A stretch of DNA of 61,449 nucleotides, counting the filler, from Collodictyon triciliatum (Eukaryota), in the NCBI GenBank assembly GCA_043381765.1. It is 6 parts of 6 records of this genome, joined end to end, with 100 filler letters (N's around TTAATTAATTAA, not from the genome) between each part and the next. Parts side by side here need not be neighbours in the genome. Positions count along the whole stretch, not along the records: positions 51,634 to 61,449 come from JBHJMP010002881.1; 5 more parts are not named here. One strand, written 5' to 3'. How positions within the stretch are numbered: position 1 is the first letter of the stretch; every line of letters starts with the position of its first letter. A program made the translations under genes and the position numbers. This document shows positions 31,679 to 61,449 of this stretch, in pieces. Below the pieces are notes generated by a model. That model was not told the DNA's origin and searched no databases. It worked only from the letters and a program-made list of their open reading frames with translations.

Positions 31679-31778
31679 NNNNNNNNNNNNNNNNNNNNNN
31701 NNNNNNNNNNNNNNNNNNNNNNTTAATTAATTAANNNNNNNNNNNNNNNNNNNNNNNNNNNNNNNNNNNNNNNNNNNN
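31679..31778. other. Artificial contig linker
   Basis: Same 100-nt structure as 9846-9945. Confidence 0.97.
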
Positions 31779-41611: not shown

Positions 41612-41711
41612 NNNNNNNNNNNNNNNNNNNNNNNNNNNNNNNNNNNNNNNNNNNNTTAATTAATTAANNNNNNNNNNNNNNNNNNNNNNNNNNNNNNNNN
41701 NNNNNNNNNNN
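41612..41711. other. Artificial contig linker
   Basis: Same 100-nt structure as 9846-9945. Confidence 0.97.
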
Positions 41712-42449: not shown

Positions 42450-43220
42450 TCCAACAAAAGTGTTTCCATCAGGCGCGGCATCTGTATTAATCAAGATAAA
42501 AACATAATAAAATCTTTTAGAATTAGCTTGTAAGAGAAATTTATGCGCCCGCTGGTAAATACGTTTTCTACGGATTTGATTTCTCGACATGAAACTGTAG
42601 AAAAGGAAACCCATGAAACCACGCGTAAATAAGACAAGAAGGGCGGGTTGTGATGTCAAATAAATACGAGCTCTGCGACATAAAAAAACAAGAGTAAAAA
42701 AAGAATCAAAAGTGATTAGCGAAGAAGCAAAACATATATGACGTGTTTTTAGGGACTATAAAGCAGAGGCAGAGTCAAAGAAATTTTTTGCTTTATTGTT
42801 ATTTGCCCAGTCGCTTTACACACAAAGATTTATAATACAAAAAAGTAGAAAGTATAAAAAAAAAAGGTACGTGTTTCCAGAAGCTCTAGACTTATGAACA
42901 TAAAAGAATTGTGTACAATCGGCCATGGTGCAGCACACGACTGAATAAACGCCACAGAATGCTACCTATCACCGGACACATACCATAAGACATATTGTTG
43001 TTCTGTATATACGCCACTAGATGAGATGGCATTGCACACAACCCATATTCATTCATTCATATTTTTTTTTTCATGTGCCACGGTCAATAGAAAACAAGAT
43101 ATTATATGGTCGGCATCAAATACAGAGCGAATCATTACTTTTTTTGTTATGATATGGTTTGAATTTATTTTGTTTGGCAGTGTTTTTTTGGCTGCGTTAT
43201 GCTGTTTCACCAATAAGGAG

Positions 43221-43918
43221 CTATGTATAGGCACACGCGCGGCAAAAGCTGGCAAAGTCTCCCAACAATGCACACTTTGCAGCAACGGTGATGAAACCAT
43301 TGAGTACACATTTGTGCAATGTCCCTTCGCTCAAAACCTGCGCGAAACAGCCGGCGAGATTGTTCGACTGACACTCAAGACGGCTGCGGCTGTTGGTCCA
43401 ATCCAGGCGATATTTGGGCCTCTTCAACAGCTGCGTCCAGATGCGAAAACATTCTGGGCAGTGACGCGAGGTCATTTGCTATGGACTATGTGGATAGCGC
43501 GCATATACTCACGCAAAGCAAGACTCAACAACCAGCCACCCATTCCTGATAATAGGCTGGATGACATCATACAAATCTCTTTCCTCAATAGCTTTCTTCG
43601 CCACCTGCGCGTTCTCTACTATTCAGACCCTGTGAGAAGAGAAATGTGGAAAGAAGCCGAGAAAGATATTAAACCTCGCCATGTATTTCTCATGCAAACA
43701 CAAGACCCAGGCTACAGGCCAAACCGCAGGATGCAATTCCTGATTACCGACTACTTCTCCGCCACCCGGCCAACAAGTAGCGTCCATATAAACAAAGGCT
43801 AGCGAACCAAAGCCAAAACGTCCATCATCTGCACAAAATGGGAAGGAAGAATTGTAATGGTGTAAATGTTGCATGATTTTCATGTGGGGCAAGTTTTGGT
43901 TATACTAGTAAAAAAAAA
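43221..43918 (+). mobile_element. 5'-truncated LINE (L1/Tx1-like) ORF2 C-terminus with zf-RVT-like motif
   Basis: CTLCSNGDETIEYTFVQCPFAQ (degenerate CxxC..ET..H...C) followed by LWTMWIAR. Stop at 43800-43802, a short 3' UTR and an A-run at about 43910-43918. Confidence 0.75.
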
Positions 43919-45339: not shown

Positions 45340-45995
45340 CTTTTTCTTGTTTTGTTTTGTTTTGTTTTGTTTTGTTTTGTTTTGTTTTGTTTTGTTTTGT
45401 TTTGTTTTGTTTTGTTTTGTTTTGTTTTGTTTTGNNNNNNNNNNNNNNNNNNNNNNNNNNNNNNNNNNNNNNNNNNNNNNNNNNNNNNNNNNNNNNNNNN
45501 NNNNNNNNNNNNNNNNNNNNNNNNNNNNNNNNNNNNNNNNNNNNNNNNNNNNNNNNNNNNNNNNNNNNNNNNNNNNNNNNNNNNNNNNNNNNNNNNNNNN
45601 NNNNNNNNNNNNNNNNNNNNNNNNNNNNNNNNNNNNNNNNNNNNNNNNNNNNNNNNNNNNNNNNNNNNNNNNNNNNNNNNNNNNNNNNNNNNNNNNNNNN
45701 NNNNNNNNNNNNNNNNNNNNNNNNNNNNNNNNNNNNNNNNNNNNNNNNNNNNNNNNNNNNNNNNNNNNNNNNNNNNNNNNNNNNNNNNNNNNNNNNNNNN
45801 NNNNNNNNNNNNNNNNNNNNNCTCGGCAAGGGCCTTACATGTTTGGCAAAAGAAAAGGCGTCGGCCGCGGAGGGTGCAAGGCGTGGCTTTGCTGCTGATT
45901 TCTGCCGCTTGCTCGGCTGAGTCGTTCTGTCCCTGGGCAGATCGCGACGCAAGCAGAAAGCGCTCTTCACAAAACTCGTTTTCGCAGTCGGTCAT
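44143..45995 (-). CDS. PHD-finger protein with C-terminal SAP30 Sin3-binding domain (internal gap)
   Basis: PHD half EWICCDDDKCRRWTHVLCE..YKCPSC. C-terminal VDFNKLDSNCLRRYHRRYHI..KHEMAALAEAHF..VVESEVLKAF matches the SAP30 Sin3-binding pattern. Cys-rich N-terminus MTDCENEFC..FFCQTC. N gap at 45435-45821. Confidence 0.75.
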
Positions 45996-51533: not shown

Positions 51534-51633
51534 NNNNNNNNNNNNNNNNNNNNNNNNNNNNNNNNNNNNNNNNNNNNTTAATTAATTAANNNNNNNNNNN
51601 NNNNNNNNNNNNNNNNNNNNNNNNNNNNNNNNN
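51534..51633. other. Artificial contig linker
   Basis: Same 100-nt structure as 9846-9945. Confidence 0.97.
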
Positions 51634-53044
51634 TCAGGGTCGTTCAACCCGCTGACGATCTCTCACAGGGAAATGTGTGTGGAAGCGTGTCGCTCGCTTT
51701 CGTCGACTCGGGCCCTTTTGCTGCTGCCCATCGACAACGCAGACAAAGGAGCAGGACAATTGTCTGCGGAGCTTCGTTTGGGGATGCTCTGTGACTTTGC
51801 AGCTGGACATGTAGATTTCATTTATTCGATATTATTTAGAATTGTCGATGTCATTTATACATATGAATTAATGAATAGCGAAATGCATGCTGCGCTAATT
51901 ACACATGCTTCTATTTTTTTCCTGTATGTTTGCCGAATTCATCTGAGATATGACTCTGGCCTATGATTTATATTTTTCCCTAGCGCAAAACCATCCAACT
52001 CCTTTTACTGACAACTAACCGCTATTTTTTTCGAGTCGATAGAATAGTCAAAGTAACAGCGTAGTACAGTTTGGGGTTGCAGCATGTAACAAAGGTCGCT
52101 TTGTTGACCAGGTTGGTCTATATCCGAACCACTTAACTCTGTTGCTTTATTCATTTCCTCAAAGACACACATCTGTTTATATAGTCTCAAATTGTGTTGT
52201 CTTTGTACTTTTTTTTCTTTTTCAATTTATAAGTAATTCCTAGGGCTTTGTTCTGAAGCTCCATATTTTTTTGATTAAACACTTGCTTCCCAAACAGGCG
52301 ACTGCCCTAAATGATGTGTACCCTGAAGATTTTCTCAATTTTGTCGTGGGATTTGACACATTAGTGCGCATTTTTAATCCCAAATATTACGACAACCTAG
52401 ACGCAGCAATGTCTATGTATGGTCACAAATACTTCAATACACATAAACCCAAATATCAATCCGCCACGTAGACGGGGAACATCTTATTCTTGGATAATCT
52501 AGGCTCTTCTCGAAGTGCAGCCTTATCTGCTTTAACCGTGGTAGTGACGGAAAAGAAGAAATATCTGCCTTTATGGGAAAGGTATTATGATCTAAATTGC
52601 TGCATTCAGCTGCGGATTGCACAAATATTAATGTGCTTTTATGGCAGCAAATCCAAAGATTGATATATTTAAACTTGAAACAATTGATTTGAAGGTTGCA
52701 ACAGCTCCGTACTCAAGTAACGTTCGTATTATGGATAAGAATCGAGGGTTTGTCTATTTAAATCTACTAAGAATCAAAATTAACAGAGCCATAGGTATAA
52801 AGTAAAATAAAAATTTAATAAATGAAGAAAATGAAATAAATCCCAATATCCTCTTACACACAGCTAAATTATAACAATTCGTATATACTGTTTACGTAAC
52901 TAATGATCAAAACTATTCAGATTTGCAGACATATCCTCAACACATGTCAGAGAAATGGTTCGGGCAGGCGAATCAATTGCTTATTTAATACCAGAGTCGG
53001 TCGCCACATTTATTAAATTAAAGAAGCTATACACAGAACCATAG
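51634..53044 (+). CDS. POF1-like nicotinamide-nucleotide adenylyltransferase (5'-partial)
   Basis: [47 protein letters not shown] and [20 protein letters not shown]. Stop TAG at 53042-53044. Confidence 0.85.
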
Positions 53045-53247
53045 GTCTGCTATAAAGAATTAATAATAACAACCACAATACTTACACCATCAAATAAAGA
53101 AGGCGTGTCAGTTCACGATTAATAAACATTTTTGGTCTTTATCATATGAGTAATTACGATTAGGTCTCAGCCACATTTATTTTCCGCAAGACGTGACGTG
53201 CAATGAAAATTAAATATATACAGGGTAAATATTATAGTGACAACTCT

Positions 53248-54752
53248 TTAGCCCTTCTCTGCTATGGCGTCCTCAAACGTGGCACTTCTCGCAGTTGCTG
53301 AGCAAAAGGGCTGCATGCGATTATATTGAAAGAAAAATAAACGAAAAACGCATAATTCAGTATTAAATGCGATAAATATGAAATAAAAAATGGTCTTTTC
53401 TTCTGATTCTCTAAGCTTTGACAGCAATCAGAGCGTAAACCCTATCACACTGGGTATGCGTAAACCTTTTTTCGAGATAGACTTCGATAAGTCTACGTCC
53501 CGGAATGTTGCACGTGTGCCATACAGAACACCATTGTTGATGGAGCTCTCAAACGGAGCCTTACTGTCCCGTTTGATTGTTGTGGTAAAATCGTGGCTAT
53601 TCACTATTTTATCTACTCAGAATTAGTTTCTGATGAATATATTCTGATTCTATCATAATCAACATATCAAATCTTGCTGTATGCAGATGGATTGTAAAAT
53701 AATATTTGCAATAATAAAAATACATAATAGTGACGATAACGATAACAAAAATGCCAAAGAATAACCAAATCAAACAAATAAACACAAAAATAAACAAACG
53801 AAAAGAACTATTCACATGGTTACTAAAAGACCTCTCATTGACGTATCGATCTTTCTCTCTTCTGAACGTGCTGCTTCGACAATGATGCATGGACTGGAAG
53901 CCTAGACAGATATCCTGGAGATTTTCTTTGCCTTCTGGTCTGATGTTGCTATAAAAATTTAGTAATAAATTTGCTTGGTTCGCTTTTGAATCGAATAAAT
54001 GAATGTATTTTGAATCTAGTAAAGGATGATTATTTTTGTCACCTGTTTCGCATCTTTGTATGAGTTACATTCATAAAGATATTGAAGGCAGATGTATAAG
54101 GAGGATATGCTGTGTTTGGCGATACAGATTCAAATTCAAAAAAAAAATAAAAAAATAAAAAAAATAAAAAAAATAAAAAAAAATAAATGGAGATGAGGAT
54201 ACACACTTTTAATGGGTGGTAGCTTCGACCTCTCTTCATTATCTTTGAGTCGTTGAACGGCTTTTTCCCTTTTAGTGCATTTATAGAAGGGACAGAATAG
54301 TTATTATATTTGTGAGTTTTGGAATTATAATTGTCTTACAATTAGAAAGCGATTCTGTTTTTTTTTTTATAGAGAATTTAGCTCGGAACGAACGAATAAA
54401 ACATACTTTCCCGGCTATACGGAGATGCTTTTACATAGGCAACCCGAGAATGGATGGCGGGTCATCTCGTTGGTACGGGGAATTGAAAACACCGGGTGTG
54501 ATTTTTGTGCTGATCATATGGTGCATTCCCAACACCATTTCCCGAACAGCCTTTTCTGCTTGTTCTTGCATCCTCATCTGAGCATGAGTCAAGCAGAAAT
54601 GTTATGAATTTTATAAAACAAATAAATAAACAAAAACAAACAAACAGAAGGTTAAATGATCGCTGTTAGATGACATCACACGTTTTCCTGCATCTCGACA
54701 TATTTTGCCTCTTGTTCCAACATGCTTTCCACTTTCTCGATCTAGAAAAAGG

Positions 54753-54791
<39 letters not shown>

Positions 54792-55687
54792 GACATCGCT
54801 TCCTTCGACCAAAAGCACTCATATGTAATGCAGAGTCAAAAGTCGGGCTAAACTTTTTAATAACAGAGTCTATGTAGCGCTTTCTCGCATAAAAGCCATG
54901 ACAATCCTTTCTGCTAAAGAACCCGCAAAAGCTGGGTAATGTCATATACTTGAGATGAATCAATTATGTAGATCAATCATGGGAAAAGTATACAGTAGAA
55001 AACGAATGAACATACATCTTTGGAATCAGCGTCGCCATCTTGTTGAAAAATGAGAGTCGATTTTGCTCTACTGACTCTCAGATTCGTACTGTCACAGCCT
55101 TTCTGTCTTTGTGCCCACAATAAACTTTCTGGATCTTTGTGGCTGCACGGCTTAAGGTTTTTTTTTTTTGTTTGGAAATAAATCAGAATGAGGTCATTTC
55201 CTTTTGCTATGATACTTCAAGTATGTAGACTAGCTCATATGAGGGGAAAAAAAAGTAACTGCATATTGTGGACTCTTCCTCTGGCAAAGCAGCCTCGAAT
55301 AAGCCTCTGTATGGTGATGGCTGCTTTGAATTCCTCCAAGTTGCGCTCAGAGGCAGCTCTGATTGAATATGTTATATGTGAAATCAAAAATAATAAATTA
55401 TATAACAAGTAATAACGGAAAGCGAACTCGAAGTCAAAGTTAACTCAGAGGCTTTTATCCTGTGAGGATCAACTATCCATCGAATACTTTGAATCGAATA
55501 AAGGAAAAAAAAAACTATCCATCGAATACACATAAGATGGAAAAGCAACTGCAAATGAGATAAGAAAAAGAGAAATGGAAAAGTTCTTTTATGGGTGAAC
55601 CGAAGTCACATCTACGGGCTTTAGCGAACGGGAGAGTTCATCTTGGACGCCCTGCTTCAGCATTCTTGCACGGAGATATAAGCTCAT
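53248..55687 (-). pseudogene. SPATA17: SPATA17/MOT17-like ciliary IQ-motif gene, disrupted
   Basis: Three tandem IQ motifs (IQRLIRG, IQKVYCG, IPKIFCG), FFSRK..FYARKRYI, MHHMISTKITPGVFNSPY, SV*ASSP and FRDVDLSKSISKK. In-frame TGA at 55078-55080, TAA at 54431-54433 and TAG at 53902-53904, plus exon phase mismatches. Confidence 0.8.
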
Positions 55688-56137
55688 CTTATATGAGGCA
55701 ACATTGAAGTATTCACGAGTTAGCGGCTTCAACCCAAGAAAGAGTCACGTCTCCACAACTGCTTCGTTCGCGGTTTCAATTATAGCCTGTTGCGTTGCTG
55801 TTTGTGTACCCTTCATCAAGATGCTTGGCGATTTTCTCTGATCATCTTTGATTGAAAACCGGTATTGACATATGTGGAAAGGGGAAGAATGGGTGTGGAT
55901 TCTGCATCCACACGGGTTTTCTCTGGGAAATGCCACACACACAAACCGAGTGTATCAAGATTATATTTTTTCTCTCCAATTTTTGCTGTGTCTTATATTC
56001 CGCACATTTCTCATTAATTTTTCATCAAGAAATTCATTCCCTTATCCTGGATGAGAAATGTCTCAGAATGATTGGTTTTTTTTTCTGTTAAAACCCCAGA
56101 TGACTCGCAAGATTTTTCCCCCATCTTTGGCCACTCG

Positions 56138-59352
<3,215 letters not shown>

Positions 59353-60099
59353 TTTTCTCAAAACCCCGCATGCAGAACGTAGTCATGGCGGGCTTCTCCC
59401 TATTCTCTTGTTTTTCCTTTCATTGGATGTGAGTAGAGTGTTGCGAACTTTCTGTTTGGCAGAGAGAAAGCCCTCGAGAAACCGGCGATCCTGCAGCATG
59501 GCTGTCAAACGTGCAAACTGGGTTCAATGGAAAAATTCCGATTCTGGATGGAATCTGGCTTTATATAATTTATCTACACAATAGATAATGCACAGTATGC
59601 TTTGGATTTTGCATTGTGGGTATTGTTGACATTGTTGAGGTCGTGTGCAGAGAACAATCCATATACAGCTTTTTTCTATCAGGTAGGAAGCCAGCTTTTC
59701 AGGACAGATGAATCAGATGTTCGCCTTTCCCTCACAGTGCGCCCATTGTTTGGCCACCGCGCGTCCACAACACACAGAGACTTCGAGGGAGCGCGCCCAA
59801 CCAAACGCCCTTCAGCAGCAGTGAACTGCTGGCTCAGAGGCAAAAGACCAAATTCATACTTGCTGCGGGTTCTTTCAAAGCTACAAAAGAGCGTTCGAGA
59901 TGAAATGTGTATGCAAAGTCTCCAACTGAAGAAAGGCTCCAGGACCAACCAACAAAGCGATCGGCCTCTCGTTTCGCACACTCAAAGCAACTACGCTCAT
60001 TCGACATGTGCTGGCCGCCTTCATAGAGCCATGAAGAACCATACAATCGTCCTCTCACTTTGTGTTACCATTGCTACAGATCGATATTCCTACGCCGAA

Positions 60100-60922
60100 A
60101 TGACCCTGTTCTTCCGCTCCCTCAAAGCCGCCTCCAACATCGCCGGCCGCCGTGCCAACGCCACTGTTTCAGAGAGCTTCGGCACCAAAGTCAACAAGGT
60201 GAAGCGCCTATACTTACCTTTGACTTACCTTTGACTCTTTCTTTTTTTTTATTGAGTAGCAACCTCGCACCTCCTTTACCTTTTCTCAAACTTCCCCTTT
60301 TGCACAGCATTTTACTTGCCCAGTGCCATGCCTCTTACTTTTCCTGCCAACCCCTTGAATGCCTTCCAATCTCTTCATATTATGCCATTGTGCAAGGCAA
60401 ACGAATCGTGACTTACGCGAAACCTTGTAACCCTATCTGTCTCTTTTCGCCTTTCATCATGCTTTTTTTCTTCGCTTGTAAAACCATAAGTTACACCCCT
60501 TTCCCTTTTGTTTATACTTAAACCAATGGTCACATGTCGCTAAAGTTATAGAGCTGAAGAATATACTGCATCTGTAGACCAATGTGTCCTAGCTGTTTTC
60601 CCTAACATTGAAACTACACTTCCTAGGCCACCTCCGAAGTCAAAACCGCTGTTGCCCTCGTCTCTTCTGTAATCAGCTACATTATCACTCACTCACGCAC
60701 TCACTCACTCACTCACTCACTCACTCACTCACTCACTCACTCACTCACTCACTCACTCACTCACTCACTCACTCACTACTTCGTCACACATGAAAGGGAA
60801 ACGCTACTGTCCGCCAAGTCCTTGTGGGCGGTGCTGTCTGCGTGGAGCTCCTCTTCTTCTTCACTCTGGGCGAGTGCGCCGGCCGCTTTGCGCTCTTTGG
60901 CTATGACATCAAAGTCCCGTGA
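60100..60922 (+). CDS. ATP20: Mitochondrial ATP synthase subunit g
   Basis: Three phase-0 exons give MTLFFRSLKAASNIAGRRANAT..|ATSEVKTAVALVSS|GNATVRQVLVGGAVCVELLFFFTLGECAGRFALFGYDIKVP*. The E..F..GExxGR...GY pattern is the subunit g signature, and the N-terminus looks like a presequence. Confidence 0.8.
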
Positions 60923-61361
60923 GTACCCATTCCCCAACTACGCCGCGGATTGCAAGGCCTCCCATACAAGCCTTCGCCTGCTGACTCTAGATTTCCTTGC
61001 GTCGCTTCATATAACCCCGATAGATAGGCCCCGGCCTTCCTTCTGTCATGGGGATACCCTTGCGTCCTCCTCTTTCTCTCCATTGATTTCTCCCTTTGCG
61101 ATTTGCGATTTGCGATTGGCGATTCCTTTGTCTTCTGACGCATCCAAACAACGCACAAATCAGGTCGGGCGGAAACTCCCACCACTAAGACAAGATATCC
61201 CGGCTGTGAGTGCGTCCTGCTGTCCTGCTGCGTTGCAGAGTGTGGCCTTTCGAGACCCGCCCCTGCCTTCCAATAAACCCAACACTTGCCCGCCCAGCGC
61301 CTCGCTGCCTCTCGTTCCTGCCTCCCGCCCGTTGCTTCGGCACTGCCCAGAGTCTCCTGCT

Positions 61362-61362
<1 letters not shown>

Positions 61363-61449
<87 letters not shown>
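61363..61449. repeat. (GT)n microsatellite at the window end
   Basis: Directly visible. Confidence 0.97.

Follow-up and report, generated by a model that had tools for sequence, protein, structure and literature searches.

Does the locus at 55687-53248 still encode a protein of the SPATA17/FAP305 family, and, if it is dead, does its death tell of a loss of flagellar function in the organism? The window, by which we mean the whole stretch of DNA analysed (61,449 nucleotides, filler included), is made of six contigs of about 10 kb joined by N44-TTAATTAATTAA-N44 spacers. On its minus strand, a SPATA17/FAP305(MOT17) homologue is laid out in ten exons, with the ancestral ATG at 55687-55685 and the ancestral stop, TAA, at 53250-53248. 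Besides the window, we used contigs from runs X1 and X2, which come from two differently named organisms, are possibly mixtures and have their kind ('RNA') guessed in the record, from a lake metatranscriptome (X6) and from a DNA metagenome (X3). All transcript-run data are contigs, whose depths are a poor gauge of expression, and stretches without contig cover (e.g., 55808-56100 and most introns) were excluded from the evidence. The organism lives in fresh water and has Diphylleia rotans (CRuMs) as its nearest sequenced relative; the closest protein found is P0002, the 327 aa protein of D. rotans TRINITY_DN7790, which serves as the reference in the following list of features.

53248..55687, minus strand: whole SPATA17/FAP305-like pseudogene; ten exons, all reached by tblastn with P0002, and splice joints
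55620..55735, minus strand: exon A and 5' UTR; coding part 55687-55620, transcript 5' end near 55735
55483..55518, no strand given: short dispersed repeat inside intron 1, with raised depth and loose ends
55358-55260, minus strand: exon B; IQ motif 1 (AAITIQRLIRGCFARGR), still intact; joints 55358->55620 and 55150->55260
55150-55016, minus strand: exon C; eroded IQ motif 2, TGA stop and start of eroded IQ motif 3
55080-55078, minus strand: in-frame TGA; codon 80 from the ATG and first stop of the ATG ORF, aligned with N of P0002
54931-54854, minus strand: exon D; ends ...AAAAA|GT where the homologous frame calls for ...AAAAAG|GT
54741-54682, minus strand: exon E; 20 codons, donor AAC|GTGTGA, joint 54577->54683
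54577-54407, minus strand: exon F; family signature block MHHMISTKITPGVFNSPY; joint 54267->54406 (cut +1) in X1 and X2
54433-54431, minus strand: in-frame TAA, at a Glu conserved in 10 of 12 other family members
54268-54207, minus strand: exon G; ..EKAVQRLKDNEERSKLPPIK, with one extra G at its start (54268/54267)
53948-53832, minus strand: exon H; contains the in-frame TAG
53904-53902, minus strand: in-frame TAG, aligned with Q of P0002
53612-53466, minus strand: exon I; alternative acceptors 53612 and 53603, A-run 53472-53467 and G 53466
53310-53248, minus strand: coding part of exon J; PFCSATARSATFEDAIAEKG and stop

The match to the SPATA17 family goes beyond chance, since exon F by itself has 22 matches at E <= 0.001 in a set of 1.84 billion representatives (exhaustive HMMER) and also matches FAP305 in the PDB (E 5.4e-05; SPATA17, 0.026). 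The best real match of exon F is P0002 (56% identity), which itself resembles the experimentally placed family members FAP305 (7n6g/7sqc; E 3.4e-33) and SPATA17 (9ijj; E 5.1e-30). Exon F contains the central block of the family, HHLLSTK..PG(I/V)(F/Y)NSPY, in the form MHHMISTKITPGVFNSPY, which keeps H, H, S, T, K, P, G and N and has L>M and L>I changes at family-conserved columns. A word-based protein search with exon F among longer proteins gave no candidate; the same kind of search with P0002 returned 8 proteins, none of them closer than Diphylleia. Three metagenome loci that matched exon F residues 1-24 were dropped, as none of them encodes a family member in searches with P0002, P0005 and P0022. 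A passage of PMC7999657 gives SPATA17, FAP305 and MOT17 as equivalent names, and passages of that article and of PMC9113940 describe FAP305 as an IQ-motif protein that forms the 'rachis' of the C1a arm in the flagellar central apparatus. Chlamydomonas FAP305 is placed by passages of PMC9113940 on protofilament 3 of the C1 microtubule, where it makes up the C1a arm core and binds calmodulin and the PF6 complex.

Comparison with known members defines both the kinship and the defects of the window copy. Its exon F aligns with the signature block of Chlamydomonas reinhardtii FAP305, written to cover both as HH(L/M)(L/I)STK..PG(I/V)(F/Y)NSPY, and both have N-terminal IQ motifs, P0002 aligning to FAP305 residues 15-210. 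However, FAP305 is longer (427 aa; the window copy has about 330 codons), and the window copy has lost RG or IQ residues from two of its three IQ motifs and cannot encode the family protein, with three in-frame stops and three frame breaks. Mammalian SPATA17 (9ijj) and fish SPATA17 (P0154, P0156) belong to the same family (P0002 versus fish, E 1.6e-24) but are distant, at 34-40% identity to P0002, and differ from the window copy in that the latter is a pseudogene. The Diphylleia rotans gene (P0002, P0023, P0024; EukProt EP00002) aligns with all ten exons, and the window copy is 50% identical to its protein across 326 aligned columns; the F/G intron sits after AGK in both, the isoform P0024 reading into it. 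Unlike the window copy, this gene has an open frame of 327-328 codons, and it belongs to a separate organism, the AMP deaminases of the two being 72-76% identical.

An uninterrupted frame of family length (roughly 300-430 codons) is absent from the window copy. From the ancestral ATG the reading frame stays open for 79 codons, up to the TGA; beyond it, the homologous frame contains two more stops and is broken three times by a single base. The D/E join (donor at 54853) lacks one base, the F/G join is thrown out of frame by the extra G at 54268/54267, and the I/J join is at +1 from the A-run 53472-53467 plus G 53466; all three breaks fall at A/G runs at exon ends. An alternative in-phase donor in exon D, TCT|GTTATT, is a candidate that would remove the D/E break. 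The three N-terminal IQ calmodulin-binding motifs of the family are no longer all present. While motif 1 still scores above the Pfam IQ cut-off (21.5 bits versus 20.3), motif 2 reads ..IQKVYCGHK (RG to CG, codon 67) and falls below it at 15.1 bits, and motif 3 reads ..LIPKIFCGFF (IQ to IP, RG to CG); in the Pfam scan, the exon D part of motif 3 had no match and exon C yielded no second IQ stretch. For comparison, the best motif of P0002 reaches 31.3 bits. The changes R>C, Q>P and R>C fall at family-conserved columns, and the window copy keeps 30 of the 40 columns conserved in >=75% of 12 other members, P0002 keeping 35.

The transcript contigs carry several of these lesions. The locus is transcribed and spliced in contigs from X1, X2 and the lake metatranscriptome X6, with splice joints for eight of the nine introns, of which 8 are GT-AG and 1 is GC-AG (intron 1, 55619-55359; its joint 55358->55620, with ends CT..GC, occurs in both X1 and X2). 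A single letter lies between the two sides of the exon E joint and corresponds to a C>A difference at 54682. Exon I is joined as 53612->53832 (X2, X6), 53603->53832 (X1) and 53312->53467, and the 3' UTR of exon J reaches at least 53000 (X2 contig rec 8 spans 53000-53312). At the other end, a loose end at 55735 in X1 may resemble a template-switch oligo. Seen outside the window are the TGA, the TAG and the extra G at F/G; the TAA and the D/E break are known from the window alone. More specifically, the reference letter at 55080, in the TGA, is kept at a depth of 71.5 of 89 in X1 and 32.9 of 56.2 in X2, the TAG is crossed by X1, X2 and X6 contigs at more than 40 letters from the piece ends with no difference listed, and both G's at F/G are present in spliced X1 and X2 contigs whose joint skips 138. 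Among contigs, exon D is covered by a diverged type alone (see below), and at the TAA the alignments of contigs rec 3/10 (X1/X2) end at 54434, next to the codon, with 3 letters remaining. We considered whether this TAA is instead part of an alternative donor site, GTAA in AT|GTAAAA (54434/54433), use of which would also cure the F/G phase, and rejected it as the main form: the spliced contigs cut at 54407/54406 and the Diphylleia intron follows ...AGK, although a minor isoform of this kind is possible.

Other lesions vary. Codon 67 is Cys (TGT) in the window and Arg (CGT) in all X1/X2 contigs (depth 44 of 44 and 56.2 of 56.2), an intron-retaining X1/X2 contig has an additional CAA>TAA at 54562, and the A-run of exon I has 6 A's in the window versus 7 in X1/X2, where the I/J join, at +2, is out of frame as well. 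X1 and X2 themselves differ at single sites (53266 and 54476 are changed in X2 only). Such strain-differing lesions fit with ongoing decay. We conclude that the locus is a genuine non-processed pseudogene of SPATA17/FAP305 (MOT17) that died recently. The initial annotation had come to the same description from the window, and the features on which it relied (exons, stops, joins, IQ erosion and the MHHMISTKITPGVFNSPY block) are all present where it had placed them. Its family assignment is borne out by the exon F and P0002 matches, its non-processed origin by the nine retained introns, the reality of its disabling lesions by the TGA, TAG and F/G frameshift in independent contigs, and the recency of death by the conserved columns still kept and the identity to the Diphylleia protein; the transcripts that might have shown the stops edited or spliced out retain TGA and TAG.

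That annotation had also held sequencing error to be an unlikely cause, as other cellular genes of the window showed no such lesions. This stands for two genes and is tempered by their location: the AMP deaminase and an ATG22-like gene are without breaks, but the latter is the sole compared gene on the pseudogene's own contig (51634-61449), most others lying on other contigs. The AMP deaminase aligns to Diphylleia P0026 residues 91-649 in exon-sized pieces with short gaps at exon joins, its stops being confined to intron stretches bridged by longer alignments, and the ATG22-like gene is covered by six stop-free ORF pieces (Pfam profile positions 2-430, with gaps). A Pfam scan of 296 ORF translations from the window (109 + 150 + 37), a set that leaves out nine ORFs inside the locus (of 196 listed), revealed no further ciliary gene. 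An Rfam scan of 52500-56500 gave one hit, at 20.6 bits against a gathering score of 70, and a role as host gene of a snoRNA or other RNA was rejected with this sub-threshold hit; the repeat scan found A/T-rich low-complexity families and nothing else.

Could the lesions nevertheless be compatible with a working product? A functional gene spoiled by errors of a fragmented assembly might be suspected: the window is pieced together from contigs of some 10 kb, each frame break lies at an A/G run where an exon ends, window and X1/X2 disagree in A-run length and at codon 67, and contig alignments end just before the TAA. We hold this to be extremely unlikely, because TGA, TAG and the extra G at F/G recur in independent contigs from two or three runs and two studies, the AMP deaminase and ATG22-like genes are free of such breaks, and the I/J join of X1/X2 is out of frame too. 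The same transcripts and lesion-free genes speak against a full-length protein made by reading through the stops (by a variant code, RNA editing, selenocysteine or programmed frameshifting). Such a reading could appeal to three stops at positions where the orthologue has sense codons and to three frame breaks at A-rich, slippery-looking sites; it is hardly credible when each stop is aligned with a different residue (N, E and Q), a diverged version has R at the TGA, the AMP deaminase (in its exon-sized alignments) and the six ATG22 pieces contain no in-frame stop, TGA and TAG stand unedited in transcript contigs, and conserved residues are eroded as expected without selection. A new role, either for a 79-residue calmodulin-binding peptide or for a spliced non-coding RNA or decoy regulating the conserved copy, would account for the retained transcription and accurate splicing, for contig depths like those of the conserved version (X6 included) and for an IQ motif 1 that remains above the Pfam cut-off. 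Recently dead genes commonly stay transcribed, however, no known RNA family was found in the exons or introns, and the lesions vary between strains as neutrality predicts, so that we consider a new role very unlikely.

Runs X1 and X2, which carry the dead version, also contain a second version of the gene, roughly 7-11% diverged and covered piecewise (exons B-D, part of I, and J). A 321-letter contig of this type has 10 differences over 135 letters of exon C and 9 over 79 letters in exon D, at depths of 17.5 in X1 and 23.3 in X2. It has CGA (R) where the window has TGA, and its exon D aligns through 54853, with 33 letters of the contig left over, which is consistent with an ...AAG exon end and an intact D/E join. 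At the I/J join the diverged version is in frame, the 255-letter loose end at 53468 giving S-K-K-P-F-C-S-A-T-G-R-S (30 letters translated by hand). Seven codons have listed non-synonymous differences: four are in the P0002 state (L42F, H69Y, G113D, F114Y), one goes the opposite way (E81D) and two match neither, numbers that are too small for a rate test; at codon 114 the Phe of the window is the majority state (9 of 12 family members), making for weak polarisation at that site. For exon H, no variant row occurs anywhere in the contigs. The second version may be a paralogue, a strongly diverged allele or haplotype, or a sequence from another genome.

These observations bear on the inference that the initial annotation had attached to the absence of an intact copy, namely that flagellar motility is decaying. 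It is not supported: X1 and X2 also carry a version with CGA at the TGA and an in-frame I/J join. The diverged version, in which four of seven differing residues are Diphylleia-like, fits the intact paralogue that the initial annotation had named as an argument against such decay, and would be one if it is whole over its full length and belongs to the same genome. The opposing reading is that the locus is a unitary pseudogene in an organism without a working SPATA17/FAP305, which is losing its C1a arm, central apparatus or flagellar motility, and that the conserved version in X1/X2 comes from an admixed sister strain or species. No intact protein from the organism occurs in the 1.84 billion representatives or in 90% clusters, tblastn with P0002 finds no second SPATA17/FAP305 copy in the window, passages of PMC12133344 place flagellum-less amoebae, the rigifilids, in the CRuMs clade, and lesions private to the window (Cys67 and probably TAA 54431-54433) are absent in X1/X2. 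Against this, both versions occur, with similar ratios of depth, in two runs distinguishable at single sites, which two copies per genome explain more easily; TGA and TAG are common to window, X1 and X2 (TAG also X6), so that dead and conserved copies coexist across strains; and had flagella been lost long ago, neither the 50% identity to Diphylleia nor nine usable introns would have survived. We regard the unitary reading as unlikely. To its furthest form, in which there is no working SPATA17/FAP305 at all and the C1a arm is being dismantled as an initial step toward a rigifilid-like, flagellum-less state with other axonemal genes decaying too, we give little credence. SPATA17/FAP305 forms the core of the C1a arm; a whole genome without an intact copy would therefore carry weight, as it would mean that a close kin of flagellated diphylleids has recently altered its central apparatus, in a deep-branching, genome-poor group of eukaryotes.

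Taken together, the locus is probably a transcribed non-processed pseudogene, the redundant partner of a conserved SPATA17/FAP305 version. The dead copy has retained its promoter and nine introns, and its transcription and splicing go on. It probably yields no SPATA17-like protein, the longest possible product being a 79-residue peptide that has one IQ motif, and its mRNA is probably a target of nonsense-mediated decay, given the eight exon junctions downstream of the stop; no product that takes the C1a-arm place or binds calmodulin would be expected from this locus. The function would be carried by the second, better conserved version, which is found at similar depth in two closely related strains, leaving the window copy under neutral decay. 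As that better-preserved version is expressed in close relatives, the locus looks like an ordinary dying copy and not like flagellar loss. Transcribed non-processed (duplicated or polymorphic) pseudogenes in general likewise keep introns and promoter, continue to be transcribed, carry nonsense and frameshift lesions that vary between strains and have a better conserved partner; relative to them, nothing unusual is established here.

As things stand, another transcribed dead gene copy matters little in itself. Its main practical value lies in warning annotators of this fragmented assembly that gene callers could output a shortened or wrongly spliced 'SPATA17' here. With one of the two versions decaying and their exons about 7-11% apart, there is also a slight indication that gene or genome duplication, or strongly diverged haplotypes, may exist in the lineage. 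A minor observation concerns intron 1, where the bins at 55392-55599 have depths of 181-333 in X1 and 159-298 in X2, compared with at most 83 (X1) and 102 (X2) in other exon-bearing bins, the exon H bin being higher (110/131). Many loose ends at 55482-55521 in X1, X2 and X3 mark the short dispersed repeat. The DNA metagenome X3 matches mainly short repeats, and one of its contigs, of 151 letters, lies over 55545-55695 with 4 other letters.

We built a ten-exon model of the SPATA17/MOT17 homologue from three-frame translation of the region and from splice joints in public transcript contigs. Of its nine introns, intron 1 is GC-AG and the other eight are GT-AG; the open reading frame from the ATG begins MSLYLRAR and reaches a TGA after 79 codons. 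In the homologous frame, this model confirmed all the coordinates, stops and frame breaks that the initial annotation had described, and the eroded IQ stretches it had reported (..IQKVYCGHK and ..LIPKIFCGFF) are present in the translation.

Exons of the locus and lesions in its homologous frame; P0002 is the Diphylleia rotans homologue, aligned by tblastn
55687-55620, minus strand: exon A
55358-55260, minus strand: exon B
55150-55016, minus strand: exon C
55080-55078, minus strand: in-frame TGA, aligned with Asn of P0002
54931-54854, minus strand: exon D
D/E join, minus strand: frame break; exon D ends in AAAAA before GT, the homologous frame needs AAAAAG before GT
54741-54682, minus strand: exon E
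54577-54407, minus strand: exon F
54433-54431, minus strand: in-frame TAA, aligned with Glu of P0002
54268-54207, minus strand: exon G
F/G join, 54268/54267, minus strand: frame break; one extra G
53948-53832, minus strand: exon H
53904-53902, minus strand: in-frame TAG, aligned with Gln of P0002
53612-53466, minus strand: exon I
I/J join, minus strand: frame break; six A's and G present, five A's and G needed
53310-53248, minus strand: exon J

A word-based protein search with exon F gave no match; exhaustive searching of 1.84 billion representatives with HMMER returned 22 matches at E <= 0.001. The best real match was P0002 (327 aa, 56% identity, block at residues 148-195), from the Diphylleia rotans transcriptome (EukProt). 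Among solved chains, P0002 matched Chlamydomonas FAP305 (7n6g/7sqc, E 3.4e-33) and SPATA17 (9ijj, E 5.1e-30), and exon F itself matched FAP305 directly (E 5.4e-05), so that the proposed SPATA17/MOT17 identity is borne out. A passage of PMC7999657 treats FAP305, MOT17 and SPATA17 as one protein and assigns it to the C1a-c-e projection, and an excerpt of PMC9113940 describes FAP305 as a rachis that serves as the foundation of the C1a arm, with its calmodulin and PF6 complex. The top match of the HMMER search, P0001, is a 777-aa predicted protein from an ENA metagenome assembly (6518 nt contig) with 11 tandem SPATA17 signature blocks (..HHMLSTHVLPGIYNSPY..). Separately, a scan of metagenome contigs found three loci, none of which encodes a family member.

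In a tblastn search of the window, P0002 aligned all ten exons and revealed no second SPATA17-like copy. Aligned with P0002 over 326 columns, the conceptual product shows 50% identity. When 12 other family members were compared, 40 columns were conserved in at least 75% of them; the locus keeps 30 of these and P0002 keeps 35. Some of the residues lost by the locus lie in the IQ motifs (R>C and Q>P), and the Glu at the TAA site is common to 10 of the 12. Pfam still recognises IQ motif 1 (21.5 bits, cut-off 20.3), motif 2 scores 15.1 bits against the same cut-off, and the scanned pieces gave no match for motif 3. Two differences separate the Diphylleia isoforms (P0002, P0023 and P0024): an alternative acceptor accounts for a single-residue difference following ..PPIKS, and the intron that follows ..AGK is read into. 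These differences show that intron positions are common to Diphylleia and the window gene.

Public sequencing runs yielded 11 candidates, none with half of the sampled window words, and four were compared with the locus, including X1 and X2 (from one study, coded as two organisms with different names), X3 (a DNA metagenome) and X6 (a lake-water metatranscriptome). X1 and X2 hold spliced contigs at least 99% identical to the window, and X6 a spliced 233-letter contig with the 53612->53832 joint. Across X1, X2 and X6, joints were seen for eight of nine introns; the D/E joint is missing and the C/D joint occurs in a diverged contig only. A loose contig end at 55735 resembles what we take to be a template-switch oligo, in which case the contigs would be cDNA with a transcript start near 55735. 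Exon I has alternative in-frame acceptors 9 nt apart (53603-53612): X1 splices at 53603, X2 and X6 at 53612. Within intron 1, a short dispersed repeat (55483-55518) reaches a contig depth of 159-333 in X1/X2, and many X1, X2 and X3 contigs enter or leave at 55482-55521.

The transcripts keep the TGA letter at 55080 (depth 71.5/89 in X1, 32.9/56.2 in X2), and X1, X2 and X6 contigs cover the TAG site far from piece ends with no listed difference. At the F/G joint they skip 138 letters, so both G's and the frameshift are present. The TGA, the TAG and the F/G shift are thus all carried by independent contigs; these core lesions are independent of the assembly, neither editing nor splicing takes them out, and assembly error is an improbable source. 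At the I/J join, X1/X2 contigs have one A more than the window, leaving the join out of frame in both (+2 in X1/X2, +1 in the window). At the TAA site, the alignment of two contigs (rec 3/10) ends at 54434 and leaves three letters unaligned, and differences that near a piece end appear to go unlisted, so X1/X2 may carry a sense codon at 54431-54433. Recoding or a variant genetic code is likewise of low probability, and the latter was rejected because the coding pieces of other genes contain no in-frame stop. More specifically, the AMP deaminase gene on another contig of the assembly aligns to residues 91-649 of Diphylleia P0026 in exon-sized pieces with short gaps at exon joins, its stops confined to intron stretches bridged by longer alignments, and the ATG22-like gene on the locus's own contig gives six stop-free ORF pieces (Pfam profile positions 2-430, with gaps).

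X1 and X2 also contain a second, diverged version, seen as a 321-letter contig in both (depth 17.5 and 23.3, respectively). Compared with the window, this contig has 10 mismatches over 135 letters in exon C and 9 over 79 letters in exon D. Its codons were obtained by applying the listed contig differences to the window's codons. It has CGA (Arg) where the window has TGA. Four of its seven non-synonymous codons have the Diphylleia state (L42F, H69Y, G113D, F114Y), one goes the opposite way (E81D) and two match neither; codon 114 is weak evidence because the window's Phe is the majority state in the wider family. The exon D alignment runs through 54853, consistent with an intact ...AAG end at the D/E join, and the contig has a further 33 letters beyond that alignment. 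A contig with T>C at 53515 departs from the window at 53468 and continues for 255 letters, the first 30 of which read in frame as S-K-K-P-F-C-S-A-T-G-R-S by hand translation (P0002 there has SKKPFCSASTRGS). Given this continuation and the CGA, the second version is repaired in two places, the TGA site and one of the broken joins, and is consistent with an intact join at a second of them; judged from exons B-D, part of I, and J, it looks to be under constraint.

We consider the locus likely to be a non-processed pseudogene that died recently and is still transcribed and spliced, and whose function would be covered by the second, conserved version (a paralogue or strongly diverged allele). Its transcript would be an NMD target and no useful product would be made from it. 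We regard the initial annotation's stronger idea, unitary loss of SPATA17/FAP305 with flagellar decay, as quite unlikely; it keeps this small probability because the second version may be incomplete or may come from a genome other than the window's. A new role for the locus also has low odds, the Rfam scan of it being empty; a repeat scan gave nothing useful. Codon 67 is Cys in the window only and Arg in all X1/X2 contigs, and an intron-retaining, window-like X1/X2 contig has an extra CAA>TAA at 54562; these differences point to decay of the dead copy still going on among strains.

Diphylleia rotans supplies the nearest SPATA17 relative by HMMER and, among those compared, the nearest AMP deaminases (two paralogues, 72-76% identity in the better-aligned exons; Colponema 63%, Porphyridium 59%). 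Its two paralogues share 73% identity, and the window organism is thus not closely related to Diphylleia. Pieces of the locus occur in lake/freshwater runs, spliced in X6 and genomic in X3. Excerpts of PMC12133344 and PMC11603278 describe diphylleids as flagellates that swim in freshwater and have a central pair, and rigifilids, of the same clade, as lacking flagella.

The window consists of six contigs of about 10 kb with ends in microsatellites, joined by five spacers.

Spacers, each N44-TTAATTAATTAA-N44
9846-9945
19789-19888
31679-31778
41612-41711
51534-51633

It is an artificial concatenation, and neighbourhood across spacers is no true linkage. On the contig of the locus (51634-61449), the only neighbour recognised is the ATG22-like (vacuolar effluxer / MFS) gene (56614-59272, minus strand), directly upstream of the pseudogene. 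The AMP deaminase gene (22169-26751, plus strand) is intact and multi-exon. Long N runs at 21370-21847 (478 bases) and 45435-45821 (387 bases), within T-rich simple repeats, may be gaps or masked stretches. A 285-aa ORF (42945-43799, plus strand), which matches zf-RVT weakly (25.0 bits, below the 27.5 cut-off), is probably what remains of a retroelement. Scanning 296 ORF translations of the window against Pfam revealed no other ciliary genes. Exons for adenylate/guanylate cyclase catalytic domains (3930-4277 and 7377-7829, plus strand) could bear on flagellar signalling.
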